A stretch of DNA of 34,198 nucleotides from positions 1 to 34,198 of the IMG/VR virus record IMGVR_UViG_3300050194_000006. One strand, written 5' to 3'. The DNA is from a virus. Lineage: Duplodnaviria > Caudoviricetes. The position numbers and the translations under genes were made by a program. Positions 954-34,187 of the stretch are shown here, piece after piece (within the stretch, counting starts at the first letter, position 1; each line of letters begins with the position of its first letter). Under the pieces are notes generated by a model, which worked only from the letters and a program-made list of their open reading frames with translations, searched no databases and was not told the DNA's origin.

Positions 954-987
954 TTTGAAACTTATATCAAAATAATTCCTATCTTAG
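954..987 (+). promoter_or_regulatory. Bacteroidota-type promoter (variant -7 box)
   Basis: TTTG at 954-957 and TATCTTAG at 980-987 (consensus TAnnTTTG, one mismatch). Confidence 0.45.
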
Positions 988-990
988 CCG

Positions 991-1092
991 TATCATAATT
1001 ATTTTTTGTTTACGGTTAGGTAAAAAATAGGGGTTAAATGCTAGTTTTTCCCCTTTTTTAATTCCACAAAGCACCACTAAGGTGCTTTTTTT
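991..1092 (+). ncRNA. putative anti-start-codon small RNA 1
   Basis: No ORF; lies between a promoter and a terminator; 5' TCATAATTATTTTTTGTTTA is complementary to several phage translation starts. Confidence 0.5.
1068..1092 (+). terminator. intrinsic terminator
   Basis: AAAGCACC-ACTAA-GGTGCTTT followed by a T-run. Confidence 0.75.
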
Positions 1093-5565: not shown

Positions 5566-5587
5566 GACAAACAAAAAACAAATAATT

Positions 5588-5731
5588 ATGAGAGTCGGAG
5601 ATAAAGTATATTTTAATTATGACATTAATAAAAATGTGTACTCAGTGGTTTGGGTAAATCCTGATAAAGATTTTGAAGTACAGCTTAATGATGGAAGTTA
5701 TGTAATGACTAGTGATTTATCAAAAATCTAA
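5588..5731 (+). CDS. small hypothetical protein (47 aa, MRVGDKVYF..., SH3/KOW-like start)
   Basis: ATG inside the 17-bp repeat; TAA at 5729-5731. Confidence 0.6.
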   Translation: MRVGDKVYFNYDINKNVYSVVWVNPDKDFEVQLNDGSYVMTSDLSKI

Positions 5732-5770
5732 AATTATTAAAAAGAAACAATTTAACTAAAACAAATAATT

Positions 5771-5911
5771 ATGAAAAAGCAAAACGAATATACGTTTAAA
5801 CATTTAGTTAATTCTTGTATAGTTGTAACTATAAAGGCGTATTCAGAAATTGAAGCACGGCAAATGTTTGCAAATTATGTAAAAAATTCACAAGACTATT
5901 TTATAGTATAA
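5771..5911 (+). CDS. small hypothetical protein (46 aa, MKKQNEYTF...)
   Basis: ATG inside the 17-bp repeat; TAA at 5909-5911. Confidence 0.6.
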   Translation: MKKQNEYTFKHLVNSCIVVTIKAYSEIEARQMFANYVKNSQDYFIV

Positions 5912-5929
5912 CAATAAAAACAAATAATT

Positions 5930-6442
5930 ATGAAAGAACACAATGTTGACTGTATGAAATACAGAAAAGCTACACACATAGCAGGTGTAGACGTTGAAGC
6001 AATCATCGCAGAAAAAGGAAAATGTATAGTAACGATTAAAGATGCGTACTATTCAAAAGGTGTTGACGTATCGGGTAATAAAACAGATGGTTACTTTTTA
6101 GAGTTTGCCGAAGATATTAAACCGATGGTAGTAAATTCTGGTAATCGTAAAGTCATTGCTTCGTTATGTAAGCAAACAAAACAATTAACACCTATTGAAA
6201 GTAGAAATATTGCCAATTGGGTTGGTATGCAGATTGAATTATATTTTGATGCAACTGTTGAAATGATGGGTCAAGTAATAGGAGGTATCAAAGTAAAACA
6301 GCAAGCAGTAGTAGTTGAAAAGAAAACGCTAAACGAAACACGGTTTGCTAAAGCATTACAATCTATTACGGATGGTAACTATACTCGCAAAGAATTAGAA
6401 GAGAATTTTGTATTAACAGATGAGCAAATTGAAAGGTTATGA
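5930..6442 (+). CDS. putative ssDNA-binding/annealing protein
   Basis: KPMVVNSGN...WVGMQIELY...GGIKV core; C-terminal RFAKALQSI...LTDEQ tail of the kind seen on Bacteroidota phage recombinases; near the YqaJ gene. Confidence 0.5.
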   Translation: MKEHNVDCMKYRKATHIAGVDVEAIIAEKGKCIVTIKDAYYSKGVDVSGNKTDGYFLEFAEDIKPMVVNSGNRKVIASLCKQTKQLTPIESRNIANWVGMQIELYFDATVEMMGQVIGGIKVKQQAVVVEKKTLNETRFAKALQSITDGNYTRKELEENFVLTDEQIERL

Positions 6443-6792
6443 GAGTGAGATATGTAAGAAAAGCTAAATGGTTTAATAACTACCACTTAACAATTGGAAA
6501 TATTTATGAAGCTACAATTAATAGTTTTGATAATTATGAACTTATTGATAATATTGGAGGAATAACAACTTGCTTTGAATATGAAATAGAAGTAATCGAA
6601 GAAACACAAACAGACCAAATAGTAGAAAGCATTATAAACCAATTTAAGCAACGTAGCGAGGTTGGAATAGCTAAATACGGAACAACACTAGAGCGTAAAG
6701 ATTTAACTACCTTAGAATGGATTGAACACGCTAAACAAGAAGCAATGGATTTTATACTTTATTTAGAACGATTAAAACAAGAAATGTTATGA
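6439..6792 (+). CDS. hypothetical protein with C-terminal all-alpha NTP-pyrophosphatase-like domain
   Basis: RSEVGIAKYGTTL...WIEHAKQEAMDFILY motif. Confidence 0.5.
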   Translation: MRVRYVRKAKWFNNYHLTIGNIYEATINSFDNYELIDNIGGITTCFEYEIEVIEETQTDQIVESIINQFKQRSEVGIAKYGTTLERKDLTTLEWIEHAKQEAMDFILYLERLKQEML

Positions 6793-7639: not shown

Positions 7640-7680
7640 ATAAATTCTTATTATATTAGCAGAACAAAACAAAAAAGATT

Positions 7681-8013
7681 ATGAAAAAACAAGAAATAGA
7701 AGAACTGACTAGAACGGCTTTGTGTTATATTTATCAATGCAATGACAATGCAGTAATAGCCGAAAGAGATAATTCAATGACATCGATTTATGCGGCACAA
7801 GAAAACTACAAGGCATTTTTAGACAATCTAAAAGAACTTAATAAAGCAGTCGAAACACAGCAAACATTCGACAATTTAACCAGCTTACGTGAACAAGCGC
7901 ATTTTAAAATGAAACGAGCGCAATATGCTGACCATTTAATGGAGCAAGCACAATATCAAAGTGAGGTTGATTTATACGATAAACGAATTGAAATTTTAAA
8001 AACCAATAAATAA
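7681..8013 (+). CDS. hypothetical protein
   Basis: 110-aa ORF with an A-rich leader. Confidence 0.65.
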   Translation: MKKQEIEELTRTALCYIYQCNDNAVIAERDNSMTSIYAAQENYKAFLDNLKELNKAVETQQTFDNLTSLREQAHFKMKRAQYADHLMEQAQYQSEVDLYDKRIEILKTNK

Positions 8014-9252: not shown

Positions 9253-9483
9253 ATGGAAAGTAAAAAACAAACATCAGTTGAGTGGTTATTAGATAAACTA
9301 AAATCACAAGGTTTATTAATTGGAGAGATTGATAATTTAATTGCAGTCAACCAAGCCAAAGAAATGGAAAAGCAACAGATTATTGATGCGGTTCAAGAAA
9401 CTATGGAAGAAATGAATTTATATGAAAGTTTTTGAACTTTAAAAAATGGAGAACAATACTACAACGAAACATTTAAACCATGA
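9253..9483 (+). pseudogene. KQTxVEWL...AKEMEKQQIIDA family protein interrupted by an in-frame TGA at 9433-9435
   Basis: Frame continues TLKNGEQYYNETFKP to TGA 9481-9483, which overlaps the next ATG. Confidence 0.55.
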
Positions 9484-12398: not shown

Positions 12399-12472
12399 GG
12401 TTACTTGTTTACATATTACTTTTATTAATATCTTTGTTTATTTGGTATGATATACTTGAATTTATCTGTTGA
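12395..12472 (+). CDS. possible 25-aa hydrophobic peptide
   Basis: ATGA overlap with the TerL stop; MRLLVYILLLLISLFIWYDILEFIC; may be a by-product of AT-rich promoter DNA. Confidence 0.25.
   Translation: MRLLVYILLLLISLFIWYDILEFIC
12429..12436 (+). promoter_or_regulatory. Bacteroidota -7 box upstream of the glycosyltransferase pair
   Basis: TATCTTTG 10 nt before ATG 12447. Confidence 0.5.
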
Positions 12473-13322
12473 CGATTACGCCAATATGAGCCACGAAAAT
12501 GCAAATGCGTTACGTTCAATCGGAGTGCATTGTAAAGACTATTCTATTAATCGACACGTGTTCAACTATGCAACACAATCACTACCAATTAGACCGCAAG
12601 ACATCAAACATATTGTAGGCGGTTACGATTGTGTACAGATATTTCATAGCGATGAAAGACTTTTAAGGCACGTCTTAGAAGGTAAGCCTAAACGAATTGT
12701 AATATATCATTCAGGAACACGATATAGGCAAAACCATGAAATGTACAATGAGTTATTCAAAGACTATAAACAACTGACTGACCAAACAGAGTTCATTCAA
12801 TTAGGTAATATGAGTTACATTGCACCACATACTACATTGATAAGCCAACCTAAGCGCCAAGATGGTAAACTAATTATAGGACATTACCCTAGCAATCCAT
12901 TTGTAAAGGGGACAGATGGCATTGAATATGTTTTGAATCAGTTTAAAAATGACTTTGAAATACGAATAGACCGTACCAAAGTAAGTCATGACCAACAACT
13001 TAAACGAATGAGTGAATGTCATGTTTATGTAGAACTATTTGCACCTATGCAACAAGGCAAACAATACGGTTGTTTTGGTGTAACAGCATTTGAAGCGAGT
13101 GGTTTGGGTTGTCATGTAGTTACTCAAAATCTAAACCCGAATGTGTACGATGAGGTTTATGGTGCGTGTTATTTCAGTTTAGCGAATGATGAAGAAAGTT
13201 TTTATCGTATCTTAGAGGACTTAAAACACGTGGATAGGAATATGTTATTAACTCCAGCAGGTTTTTATATTAATCATAATATCGAAAGCACAGGTTATAA
13301 AATTTTAGAATTGACGAAATGA
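12447..13322 (+). CDS. GT-B fold glycosyltransferase (GT4-like)
   Basis: HYPSNPFVKGT, then FGVTAFEASGLGCHVV (GT4-like FGxxxxEAxxxGxPVV). Confidence 0.75.
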   Translation: MIYLNLSVDDYANMSHENANALRSIGVHCKDYSINRHVFNYATQSLPIRPQDIKHIVGGYDCVQIFHSDERLLRHVLEGKPKRIVIYHSGTRYRQNHEMYNELFKDYKQLTDQTEFIQLGNMSYIAPHTTLISQPKRQDGKLIIGHYPSNPFVKGTDGIEYVLNQFKNDFEIRIDRTKVSHDQQLKRMSECHVYVELFAPMQQGKQYGCFGVTAFEASGLGCHVVTQNLNPNVYDEVYGACYFSLANDEESFYRILEDLKHVDRNMLLTPAGFYINHNIESTGYKILELTK

Positions 13323-13930
13323 AAGTAAGCGTAATAATTCCATACTCAAAAGATAGGGGCTATTTAGACCAGGCAATCGAATCAATAAAGAATCAAAACT
13401 TTGGCGGTGATATTGAAATAATTTTAAGTAAGTCGGATAAATCAGTTTCGTATAATCTGAATGAAGGCATTAAGATTGCAACAGGTGAATTTGTAAAGTA
13501 CTTGTGTGATGATGATATGTTAACACCTAATTGTTTAGCAGATTCAGTTGATGCAATGGAAGGATTTGATTTTATTCATGGCAAAGCAATTAACTTTTTT
13601 GAGAATGGTTTACGTACTATTCATGTGCCACGTGTTCCATTTCCTGACTTAAAACAAATGAAGCATCAAAATATAATTCATGGTGGTTCGCTTATGTATA
13701 GACGTGATGTATTTGAATGTTTCAATGTTTGGTTTGATGAGTCGTTAACATGTGCTGAAGAGTACGATCTAAATATGAACTTACTTTCAAAAGGTGCTAA
13801 GTTAGGTTATTGCCCTTCAACATTATATTTATACCGTAGACATTCAGAACAAAAAAGTCTAGGGAAACAAGCGAATCAAAAAGAACGATTAGAAAAGATT
13901 AAAGCAATTCAAAACAGATATGGAAATTAA
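13319..13930 (+). CDS. GT2 family glycosyltransferase
   Basis: KVSVIIP, AIESI..Q, YLCDDD (DxD), EEYDL, YRRH. Confidence 0.9.
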   Translation: MKVSVIIPYSKDRGYLDQAIESIKNQNFGGDIEIILSKSDKSVSYNLNEGIKIATGEFVKYLCDDDMLTPNCLADSVDAMEGFDFIHGKAINFFENGLRTIHVPRVPFPDLKQMKHQNIIHGGSLMYRRDVFECFNVWFDESLTCAEEYDLNMNLLSKGAKLGYCPSTLYLYRRHSEQKSLGKQANQKERLEKIKAIQNRYGN

Positions 13931-18658: not shown

Positions 18659-19186
18659 ATGTGCCAAGATAAATTTGAAAGAAGACAGATAAAAATGGGT
18701 TCAGGAGTTCCAACAATTCCTGCAAGTACTGACCATAGAAACGGAGATTGGATAGCTACCGATATTTACGATGGGGAGTTGTATATGGATACTAATACGG
18801 GTTTGACTTATACGAGGAATGGTGCTTCAATAATTCCTGCGGGTAGTGGTGCTGAAAACTTTGCAAATGCAGATTTGACATTAACAGCAATAAGAACACA
18901 TGACTTGAATAGCTTTGGTGTGCTTTTTGAAAATGGTTCAGTAGGCATTGATTCAACAGGTGTTACCGTAGATTCATTTTCAGTTATTACGGATAACTCA
19001 AACTTATCTTATAGTGCTATTGTTGTTGAAAATACAAATAGTGGGAATGCTTTTGTTGTTAACGATGGTTTAATAAAGTTTTTAAATATGCCTGTATATG
19101 CAAATGAAGCTGGTGCAGTAGGTGGTGGACTTGCAACAGGAACACTATATAAAACCGCAACAGGTGAACTAAGAATTAAACTTTAA
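18659..19186 (+). CDS. short tail fibre/spike-like protein
   Basis: N-terminal PT...IYDGELYMDT anchor motif; C-terminal YANEAGAVGGGL..G.LY. Confidence 0.55.
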   Translation: MCQDKFERRQIKMGSGVPTIPASTDHRNGDWIATDIYDGELYMDTNTGLTYTRNGASIIPAGSGAENFANADLTLTAIRTHDLNSFGVLFENGSVGIDSTGVTVDSFSVITDNSNLSYSAIVVENTNSGNAFVVNDGLIKFLNMPVYANEAGAVGGGLATGTLYKTATGELRIKL

Positions 19187-19514
19187 CCAATTTAACACCA
19201 CTAACATTGAACGTTAAAACACCAATTTCTAAAGTATCTCTATCCGTTCTAATCATGTACGGTATAGTTTGGCTTTCGTTTTGGGTTAACGTGCTAAAAC
19301 CGAATGATTGGTGCAGGCAAGGATTTGAATATGTATCAAAAGAATACGATTCTAAACCGTTCACTTCAATTGTTAGTTGTATATATCCTTCGTTAAATCT
19401 TTCATTCACATACGATGCTCGAAAGTCAACAGTTGATTTTAATAGATTGTTTGGTTTAATTTCTTTTGAACATGAAAACAACCCAACAGCGAGTAACAAC
19501 AATACCTTTTTCAT
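19176..19514 (-). CDS. lipoprotein moron (possible superinfection exclusion)
   Basis: MKKVLLLLAVGLFSC signal with lipobox; the only credible minus-strand gene; has its own promoter. Confidence 0.75.
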   Translation of the reverse strand: MKKVLLLLAVGLFSCSKEIKPNNLLKSTVDFRASYVNERFNEGYIQLTIEVNGLESYSFDTYSNPCLHQSFGFSTLTQNESQTIPYMIRTDRDTLEIGVLTFNVSGVKLVKV

Positions 19515-19537
19515 AATTAATTTATTTGTTTATAATA

Positions 19538-30372: not shown

Positions 30373-30420
30373 AAAACGGCAAAATGTATAGTATATTATT
30401 TAAAATTGTTACATTTAACC

Positions 30421-30480
30421 GTTCATTAGTCAAATCGTTTAGGTTGTTAGCCCCATTTATTTTTGTAAGTGGGGTTTTTT
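30421..30480 (+). ncRNA. putative anti-start-codon small RNA 2
   Basis: TACATTTA box at 30410-30417, TCAT 5 nt later, terminator at 30449-30480; no ORF. Confidence 0.35.
30449..30480 (+). terminator. intrinsic terminator
   Basis: AGCCCCATTTAT/GTAAGTGGGGTT stem followed by a T-run. Confidence 0.75.
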
Positions 30481-30717: not shown

Positions 30718-30748
30718 GTTTATATTTGCCTAAACGAAAAATAAGTTT

Positions 30749-31225
30749 ATGTCAAGAATATACCAACTCCTAATAATCCTAATAGCATTTACACTATCAA
30801 TTGTAGTACTTCTATCATTTGCTTCATGTAGTGATGCTAAACAAGCGCAAAAAGGCCATAATAAGTTTATCAAGCATGGTGGTAAGTTAAGTTTTAAGAC
30901 CGATACCTTAATTATAAAAGACACTATTAAAGGAATTGACGGTAAAGATAGTATCGTGTATCGCGATATGCAATATGTATGCCCTGAACTGCAATTACCT
31001 AAAACACGTTGGCAAACTAGAATTGAATACAGATACAAAACAAAAATAGAAAAGGCTCAAATTAAATGGCAAACTAAATATAAGATTAAGTATGTTAAGC
31101 AATCGAACAAACAAGATAGTAAGGCGTTCAAATGGTATCACTATTTACTGTTAGTTGTTGCTTTCGTATTAGGTGCTTATCTTCGTGGAGTTATAGCAAG
31201 TTTATTTTATGTGATTAAAAAATGA
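30749..31225 (+). CDS. unimolecular-spanin-like lipoprotein
   Basis: N-terminal signal with FASC lipobox and a C-terminal TM helix; TATATTTG box at 30721. Confidence 0.6.
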   Translation: MSRIYQLLIILIAFTLSIVVLLSFASCSDAKQAQKGHNKFIKHGGKLSFKTDTLIIKDTIKGIDGKDSIVYRDMQYVCPELQLPKTRWQTRIEYRYKTKIEKAQIKWQTKYKIKYVKQSNKQDSKAFKWYHYLLLVVAFVLGAYLRGVIASLFYVIKK

Positions 31226-32940: not shown

Positions 32941-32994
32941 AACATTTTTTAGTATATTAGCACACAAATCTACCACCAATACGAGTAGATTTTC

Positions 32995-33027
32995 AAGCCA
33001 CCACATTGGATTGTAGGTGGCTTTTTT
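32995..33027 (+). terminator. intrinsic terminator
   Basis: AAGCCACC/GGTGGCTT stem followed by a T-run. Confidence 0.75.
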
Positions 33028-33033
33028 ATGTTA

Positions 33034-33237: not shown

Positions 33238-33272
33238 TAAGGTCAATAAGGCAGTAAACAAAAAATAAAATC

Positions 33273-33644
33273 ATGACAACATCAAAACAAATCGTTCGCA
33301 CAATTGCAGATATGGCAAATGATAACGAACAAATGACAAAAAGCATTCTAGGTAAATTCGTAGTTGAGGAATGTGTTAAACTAAGTGAAAAGCCGTTTGT
33401 ATTCAAAGAAGTTAAACCGATAATTGATTCGTGTAGTTATTTGGTTAAACAGATTGAAGATTGCACCGATGGAATTGAAGCACTTGAAAACAAATTAACT
33501 ACAATGAAAAGTTTAAACGATGAAGGTTTTGTATTTCCTTACGAGCCTAAAGATTTCGACAAAGTACAAGAAAGCCTAGATGCTACAATTAGACAAAAAG
33601 AATTATTCACTAAACAGCTTATTGAAGCTATTGAAAAGATTTAA
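33273..33644 (+). CDS. hypothetical protein
   Basis: 123-aa ORF after the promoter and an A-rich leader. Confidence 0.7.
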   Translation: MTTSKQIVRTIADMANDNEQMTKSILGKFVVEECVKLSEKPFVFKEVKPIIDSCSYLVKQIEDCTDGIEALENKLTTMKSLNDEGFVFPYEPKDFDKVQESLDATIRQKELFTKQLIEAIEKI

Positions 33645-33647
33645 GTT

Positions 33648-34187
33648 ATGATTAAAATTGAAATTAAAAACAGATTTACAGGTAGTATAATTTTTACTTA
33701 CGAAAAAGAAAATGCTACTATTAAAGAAGCGGTATTAAAAGCATTAAAAGAAGGTGCTAACTTGTACGGTGCTAACTTGAGAGGTGCTAATCTCGAAAAT
33801 GCTAATCTCGAAAATGCTAATCTCGAAAATGCTAACTTGAGAGGTGCTAATCTCGAAAATGCTAACTTGAGAAGTGCTAATCTCGAAAATGCTAATCTCG
33901 AAAATGCTAATCTCGAAAATGCTTTTCTCAAAAATGCTAATCTCGAAAATGCTAACTTGAGAGGTGCTAATCTCGAAAATGCTAACAGAGTACCTATGTT
34001 TTGCAAATGGACACATGGAACAAAAGGTGATTTAATTCAAATAGGTTGTAAAGAAAAAACTATTGAAGATTGGGATTTATTCTTTGCATCTGATGAAACT
34101 TACGAAACTGATAGAGACACAGATGATTTCAAACAGATACAAGCAGTTTATTTAGCTTACAAATCATATTTAACACATTTAAAATAA
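33648..34187 (+). CDS. pentapeptide repeat protein
   Basis: About 15 ANL(E/R)x repeats; [10 protein letters not shown]-cap and IQIGC C-cap. Confidence 0.92.
33756..33986 (+). repeat. 15-bp coding tandem repeat
   Basis: GCTAATCTCGAAAAT and GCTAACTTGAGAGGT units. Confidence 0.9.

Follow-up and report, generated by a model that had tools for sequence, protein, structure and literature searches.

A conserved non-coding unit of a 34.2-kb phage that probably encodes a FopS/GibS-like small RNA complementary to its own early gene starts

The closest described systems to the unit analyzed here are two small RNAs of B. thetaiotaomicron: FopS, a member of a small RNA family that blocks translation (as described in the excerpt of PMC11697453 used here), and GibS, whose AU-rich, unstructured 5' seed base-pairs over start codons and which acts in a host lacking Hfq (according to the excerpt of PMC7366714). 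The phage RNAs treated in the excerpted part of a review target either one gene each or the host (PMC12197685), and in F. johnsoniae transcription starts 4-5 nt after the -7 box, with little -33 signal (PMC6847099, from an excerpt). No report of an RNA such as the one proposed below was found for Bacteroidota phages in the literature searched, a search that left most subscription papers outside. How early genes are turned off in small Bacteroidota phages is, to our knowledge, largely unknown.

The window, that is, the whole stretch of DNA analyzed (34,198 nt), is a 34.2-kb IMG/VR virus record estimated to be 99% complete, whose ends overlap by 9 bases. A protein scan identified a primase-like protein, a helicase, a terminase, a portal, a tape measure and an endolysin, and gave no match for an integrase among the 55 window proteins scanned. 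The promoter boxes are of the TAnnTTTG type with a TTG 17-22 nt upstream, which, by the descriptions excerpted from PMC7366714 and PMC6847099, points to a host among the Bacteroidota. The unit (976-1062) closes an early gene cluster that opens at 33273 and has a DnaA-C-type HTH gene among its members; a terminator comes next, followed by a repeat-rich block and the primase. The early genes also include one for a pentapeptide-repeat protein (33648-34187). The repeat-rich block (1093-1400) is non-coding, contains inverted repeats flanking an AT-rich center, has a similar block at the equivalent place in most of 24 relatives viewed, and is likely the replication origin. A hairpin-forming leader (1415-1500, arms 1420-1431/1485-1496) lies between a promoter box at 1407 and gene 1528, which directly precedes the primase, and two genes, the second of them glycosyltransferase-like, lie between the terminase and the structural module (12447-13930). 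Two further intergenic units were noticed: one at 32953-33030 (box TATATTAG, C/A-rich body and strong terminator), which is common to G001 and G004, directly precedes the early promoter and shows no pairing with gene starts, and one at about 30400-30480 (a strong hairpin, and CAT within a U-rich stretch), also present in G001, G003 and G004.

The features of the unit are as follows (window positions; types A to F are the sequence types of the family described below):

976 to 1062, plus strand: conserved non-coding unit of type A, without substitution in five genomes whose flanks differ
954 to 957, plus strand: TTTG, a possible -33 element (TTG 22 nt before the box), not conserved, missing in the other four copies
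980 to 987, plus strand: putative -7-like promoter box TATCTTAG, one change from TAnnTTTG
992 to 1059, plus strand: predicted 68-nt small RNA, from A992 to the end of the U run
993 to 1013, plus strand: seed, by sequence pairing the complement of an A-rich leader plus AUG
1016 to 1022, plus strand: TTAGGTA motif, common to types A, B and C and absent in D (later family members were partly picked by it)
983 to 1020, plus strand: predicted stem 983-992/1011-1020, which would mask part of the seed
976 to 1033, plus strand: predicted alternative pairing 976-982/1027-1033, a transient antiterminator in read-through RNA
1029 to 1059, plus strand: intrinsic terminator-like hairpin 1029-1053 and U run T1054-1059, predicted with P about 1.0 from 992
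1068 to 1092, plus strand: second terminator (hairpin 1068-1088), outside the unit, belonging with the origin/primase block

The box is of the same class as the TATATTAG found before gene 7681, and the F. johnsoniae box-to-start spacing (PMC6847099, excerpt) would place +1 at A992, yielding a 68-nt RNA with six terminal U. The first 8 nt of the seed are 0.98 unpaired in the predicted fold of an RNA starting at 992. The original prediction described an ORF-less unit of about 100 nt ending at the 1068-1088 terminator; the ORF-less unit holds, and its borders have been redrawn to 976-1062, with an RNA of about 68 nt and its own hairpin at 1029-1053. The hairpin at 1068-1088 is ruled out as the terminator of the unit, since it lies outside the conserved block, is separated from the unit by a whole gene in G001 and has no match in G002-G004. 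TTTG at 954, also proposed as part of the promoter, is outside the conserved block and not kept in the four other copies. The 10-bp stem that had been pointed out (983-992/1011-1020) does form in the predicted fold, in a read-through transcript only, because the promoter box and the spacer lie in the stem, and the minus-strand ATG at the element opens, as stated then, only 5 codons and is not a gene start. A minus-strand peptide is ruled out because opposite-strand ORF lengths differ by type (5, 35 and 3-15 codons), and a replication primer because in G003, G004 and types B-D the unit is not located near the origin.

Positions 976-1062 are kept without substitution in four IMG/VR contigs (G001-G004) that have different genes on both sides, the sole change among type A copies being a 1-nt deletion in the A run of G003. 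These are the same four contigs that hold the first early gene, the DNA of which is 77-95% identical between them, and two neighboring genes show synonymous change at 28/77 and 6/43 invariant-residue codons, compared with no substitution in the unit. Stem-pattern searches for diverged type A copies gave only chance matches beyond the four known contigs (in viral records, where one of the searches covered 19/64 parts, in metagenomes with 49 matches and in GTDB with 43 matches), and the first early gene had no relative in alignment-based metagenome or GTDB scans. The 43 GTDB matches, from the sole scan that covered Bacteroidaceae, contained no homolog; 18 of the 401 genomes of a Flavobacteriaceae sample matched a looser pattern, about as many as in the reversed control, and none of them had a terminator of -9 kcal/mol or better. 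Types A and C gave no BLAST match among annotated phages, where the primase has only distant relatives.

The pairings reported in the original prediction are all present: 993-1004 matches each of the starts 5588, 5771 and 5930 as a perfect 12-nt complement, 11 nt pair (with one G-U each) with the starts at 9253 and 34193/4, and all 20 nt pair, with two one-base bulges, with 19511-19532 on the minus strand. The longest perfect complement elsewhere in the window, which had gone unmentioned, is of 15 nt (999-1013 against 33254-33268), in the leader of gene 33273, the first in the early operon; this leader also opens the early operon in G001 and G004. The predicted targets are:

33248 to 33276, plus strand: leader and start of the first early-operon gene, -14.6 kcal/mol, with the 15-nt perfect match
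5570 to 5591, plus strand: promoter-proximal start 5588, -13.8 kcal/mol
7662 to 7684, plus strand: promoter-proximal start 7681, -14.3 kcal/mol
30731 to 30752, plus strand: promoter-proximal start 30749, -13.3 kcal/mol with the seed and -18.5 with the whole 5' part
19511 to 19532, minus strand: start of a lipoprotein-like moron gene, -12.9 kcal/mol
6772 to 6792, plus strand: operon-internal start 6789, -14.9 kcal/mol
5763 to 5774, plus strand: start 5771, a weaker candidate, 12-nt match, -11.7 kcal/mol
5922 to 5933, plus strand: start 5930, a weaker candidate, 12-nt match, -11.7 kcal/mol

The three TAATTATGA repeats had been put forward as targets; their matches are confirmed, and the strongest predicted targets are instead the first genes behind promoters, not all three repeats. 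The moron gene (19176-19514) is the only clear minus-strand gene of the window, located in the tail module with its own promoter, and in G001 a different protein is found behind the same leader.

Pairing is enriched at true starts over other ATGs and shuffled controls, the comparison on which the original prediction had placed weight. At -12 kcal/mol or better, the seed (992-1013) pairs with 6/56 called starts of the window versus 3/1115 other ATG contexts (one of the three shares its site with start 6789), and the mean of the six best pairings is reached by 0/500 shuffled seeds and by 1/500 shuffles with CAT fixed. The 12-mer occurs eight times at up to one mismatch (the element itself included) versus 1.71 expected, and 0/100 shuffles reach eight. 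At the same threshold, 27 of 201 distinct starts are paired in type A genomes, whose counts are not independent since they have leader families in common, versus 8/731 and 5/617 in loci of related phages that lack type A, a number of which turned out to carry other types. Within type A genomes the paired starts comprise 12 of the 18 promoter-proximal ones versus 15/183 others, and none of the 34 genes longer than 250 aa. The duplexes are weak (-12 to -15 kcal/mol before the 2.7 kcal/mol needed for seed opening). In the 12 members of the family described below whose unit follows a lysin gene, the matching starts belong to other transcription units, so that pairing would take place in trans.

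The original prediction extended this possible repression to host mRNAs, which a proxy test did not support: in two Flavobacteriales-type genomes used as stand-ins for the host, 3/163 and 2/150 starts (5/313 host-like starts) are paired at -12 kcal/mol or better, which equals the background rate and speaks against host shutoff as the main role. It is improbable that the RNA represses in trans chiefly against others, whether superinfecting related phages or host mRNAs: siblings do have leaders in common, the seeds of types A and D also pair with TTATGA starts of other lineages, and phage small RNAs are known in superinfection exclusion (PMC12197685, excerpt), but besides the background-rate pairing with host-like starts, the match of seeds to their own lineage fits self-regulation or sibling exclusion instead of general host shutoff.

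Within one genome, an inverted leader would give the same enrichment, and reverse complements of real starts outscore the seed, both of which would fit a unit devoid of function, either the remnant of an inverted gene start or a chance AT-rich stretch before an ordinary terminator, as would a recent spread of the type A copies. We consider this highly improbable in view of the wider family. A scan of 917 intergenic CAT-bearing 22-mers from 49 AT-rich loci, ordered by pairing with the starts of their own locus, places type A at ranks 1, 2, 5 and 7, and two look-alikes at ranks 10 and 17 (L009 and L024). Pattern searches gave 120 matches, among which nine distinct rows carried a terminator at or below -10 kcal/mol; all nine are members (a lower bound, like the other member counts, because one of these searches covered 49/64 parts), and the other matches are mostly in or opposite ORFs. 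One pattern match, L050/G050, proved to be the normal start of a minus-strand gene and was discarded. A scan of 39 records, 12 picked by patterns and 27 by primase alone, under relaxed criteria (a box, a gap of 3-13 nt, an intergenic [TA]CAT[AG]A, and a hairpin of -9 kcal/mol or better plus U) gave 17 matches, one per record in 17/39 records (five of type A, four of B, five of C and three of D), against 0-2 for each of ten control trinucleotides. When the box was not required, 17 of 21 CAT matches had one versus 10/88 controls; 11 of the 17 members come from records picked with box-requiring patterns, and 6/27 primase-only-picked records carry a member, all with a box. A strict scan and an un-normalized scan both missed the types other than A, and a sequence-only covariance model built from 11 members failed to recover type D and yielded no new member among 84 sources. 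By the scans used, 4 of 14 near-complete primase relatives (G005, G013, G014 and G019) have no such unit.

The box precedes all 17 members, although it deviates from the near-invariant TTTG end in 15 of them (it is canonical only in G052 and G054), and the -33 element is not kept. Types A and B have a longer 3' motif in common. That box, UCAU position and terminator are kept in four sequence types argues against absence of function, as do the differing opposite-strand ORFs, the low counts of the control motifs and the scatter of carriers on the primase tree (7 changes for 9/29 rows, with a shuffled mean of 7.9; G045 is a long row). UCAUAA is invariant in types A-D. We take this sequence to resemble the methionine tRNA anticodon loop, so that the RNA might be a decoy or stabilizer and not a repressor, mimicking that loop against anticodon nucleases or shielding mRNA 5' ends. 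Type B can expose UCAUAA in a GGG...CCC hairpin in read-through RNA; however, no anticodon-like stem-loop forms in types A, C and D, the AUG lies within the duplex in all four types A-D, and a decoy would have no need for a variable part that tracks the leaders, so we give this idea very little credence. The host-shutoff, tRNA-decoy and chance readings are thus weak.

Seven more records carry, at the same position, a box, a short U/G-rich RNA and a terminator without CAU, and were named type E (L465:11415, L466:6796 on the minus strand and L490:5289, in G008, G010 and G007) and type F (G030, G031, G040 and G048). Types E and F mirror the AAAC-rich early leaders of their lineages, with the box right after the gene at the lysin position, and type E has TTAGGTA in the terminator loop. 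Two further candidates have the same layout with a changed core: UUCAUAUU at L488:11836 (G045), where the box TATCTTAG is identical to that of the window, and GCAUAUAAUU at L484:6565 on the minus strand (G048). In type B (L353:10001-10047, L343, L367 and L390), the box-spacer and the body can fold into a short stem with UCAUAA in the loop, with one compensatory and one breaking change, and a 35-codon frame runs antisense from the unit into the lysin end.

The position of the members bears on whether the unit is transcribed independently. In 16/17 members a stop codon precedes the box by 1-8 nt (by 32 nt in the window), and in 12/17 (types B, C and D) the unit lies 1-8 nt after a lysin gene; the five upstream genes checked (one of type B, two of C, one of D and one of E) all encode a lysozyme or an M15 peptidase. 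The unit could therefore be the 3' tail of the upstream mRNA (that of the early operon in the window, of the lysin in types B-D). It would then act once processed, or in cis, through a terminator/antiterminator switch, by pairing with its own 5' leader or with the start that follows. The best perfect match of type A, in the leader of the first gene of the same operon, would fit, as would the pairing of box and spacer with the body in read-through RNA (type A and part of B and C) and the transient antiterminator pairing 976-982/1027-1033, predicted with P 0.97-1.0 before the 3' arm of the terminator is made. Three of the five type A copies are directly followed by a gene whose start pairs with the seed (-14.7 to -16.3 kcal/mol); such an arrangement, with alternative pairing and a paired downstream start as in a riboswitch or attenuator, is absent in types B-D, where the unit precedes the early promoter and 142-200 nt separate it from the next start, which has a promoter of its own. 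Against a 3' tail, in types A, C and D (13/17) the predicted start, 4-6 nt past the box, is also where the seed sets in, and the seed is buried in read-through RNA (predicted opening cost of 7.8 kcal/mol versus 2.7 from start 992), while the upstream stem is weak in G026, G055, G056 and type D; moreover, the window and G002 keep the unit without a following gene, and at equilibrium the terminator wins over the antiterminator (P of the latter 0.00-0.11 once the arm is made). We thus regard a 3' tail, the main rival, as unlikely. From the predicted start, UCAUAAUU is 0.98 unpaired in the window and 0.54-0.99 in 16/17 members, the exception being G003, in which the folded stretch included the start of the next gene.

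Over the starts of genes of up to 250 aa, the type A seed reaches -14.5 in type A genomes versus -10.7 in other carriers and -9.2 in the rest, a preference for the own genome that is absent for types B and C and weak for D, and TTATGA is not enriched over all these starts in carriers (93/511 versus 109/733, p = 0.12). Among first genes behind a full promoter, TTATGA is found in 28/39 in carriers and 10/54 elsewhere, and at promoter-proximal starts of primase-picked records in 12/15 and 6/48, the per-record share at such starts being 0.74 versus 0.17 (16 and 22 records, p = 1.5e-5). When seed types and lineage leaders are compared in a double-centered matrix, which draws on 5-15 leaders for each lineage, on genes called by a simple program and on a promoter filter chosen after type A was seen, the own lineage is best in every row. 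This fit corresponds to 1/24 permutations for types A-D and 1/720 for A-F (E and F having been named after their leader match was known), and it is matched by 0/2000 U-rich intergenic 24-mers of the same lineages and 0/2000 shuffled seeds, the former also counting against a chance origin. The real seed beats 120/120 sampled control 24-mers in types A-E and 110/120 in F. An apparent one-base indel match holds in G007 and G010 and fails in G008. The co-variation of seed and gene starts in related phages, which the original prediction proposed as a check, is therefore borne out at promoter-proximal leaders, and fails for types B and C over all starts.

Judged by what defines a trans-encoded base-pairing small RNA, the locus is a non-coding unit with a promoter-like box and a putative intrinsic terminator, has a conserved seed predicted to be accessible, and shows complementarity that appears enriched at initiation regions and to change with them, types B and C excepted over all starts. 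The 976-1062 unit probably encodes a FopS/GibS-like trans-acting RNA (of a predicted 68 nt) that represses early mRNAs of the phage itself. The proposal that a trans-acting RNA occludes the AUG of early and moron genes thereby gains support from the conservation of the unit, the enrichment at starts, the 17-member family and the lineage-tracking seeds, its host extension being left aside, and it is still one that we infer. Host RNA polymerase would read the -7-like box and start at A992, and termination at the 1029-1059 hairpin would leave a free U-rich 5' seed, which could cover the AUG of the first genes behind strong promoters together with their short, unstructured leader of 18-25 nt. Initiation would be blocked, there being no Shine-Dalgarno pairing in Bacteroidota, and as the RNA accumulates, early and moron proteins would decrease and structural genes would be spared. 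Because the box is one base off consensus, the RNA may build up slowly, so that early proteins are made in a pulse. The same RNA would also act on early mRNAs of a sibling phage that infects the same cell, and kin exclusion is compatible with the same molecule.

A broader reading, which we offer tentatively and hold to be possible and not probable, is that small Bacteroidota phages make their early-to-late switch in this way: each lineage has a private motif in its early leaders, and a small RNA to match (types A-F) silences all these mRNAs at once, as well as co-infecting kin. If true, it would represent a protein-free, co-evolving translational repressor and immunity code, enabled by the absence of Shine-Dalgarno pairing. 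A seed that changes with a whole class of leaders offers a handle on class-wide translational control and on possible RNA-based kin exclusion, and would give Bacteroidota genetics a naturally occurring collection of compact repressor RNAs that differ from one another.

Comparison with other known RNAs places the unit as follows, each source being represented by an excerpt. Mycobacterial B11 is similar in repressing many genes by mirroring a generic translation-initiation signal, although it is chromosomal and uses C-rich loops against Shine-Dalgarno sequences (PMC10470900), whereas the unit is U-rich and faces an A-rich leader plus AUG. The phage RNAs sar (P22), OOP and aQ (lambda), PAK_P4as15 and STnc6030 also time phage genes or exclude superinfection by base pairing, but act on one gene each, mostly from the opposite strand (PMC12197685), while the unit is encoded elsewhere and would reach a gene set through a shared leader motif; a cis-antisense arrangement of the sar/OOP type was not found, as the opposite strand opens only 5 codons and the matches are elsewhere. 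PreS/LPR1 of lambda is likewise a trans-acting phage small RNA that acts at translation initiation in the lytic cycle, but, unlike the unit, it acts on host genes, enhances dnaN translation and works in an Hfq-bearing host (10.1101/2024.10.31.621285). In Rfam 15 (4227 families), the window gives only a GAIT match, with E = 2 and outside the unit, and five loci with B and C members give no match up to E = 2, so that covariance models do not place the unit, as predicted from its sequence, in the FopS/GibS family. GibS resembles it in its long AU-rich unstructured 5' seed pairing over start codons, and differs in being chromosomal and sugar-regulated, with two seeds and metabolic targets (PMC7366714). 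FopS has the same layout and target position (PMC11697453). Multiple copies in Bacteroidaceae chromosomes mark the FopS/GibS family, whereas the unit is present as one copy per phage record, its predicted targets are early genes of the phage itself, and its seeds differ between lineages. The unit is real and conserved, and it would work as FopS and GibS do, set apart from them by the covariance-model result and by its lineage-specific seeds.
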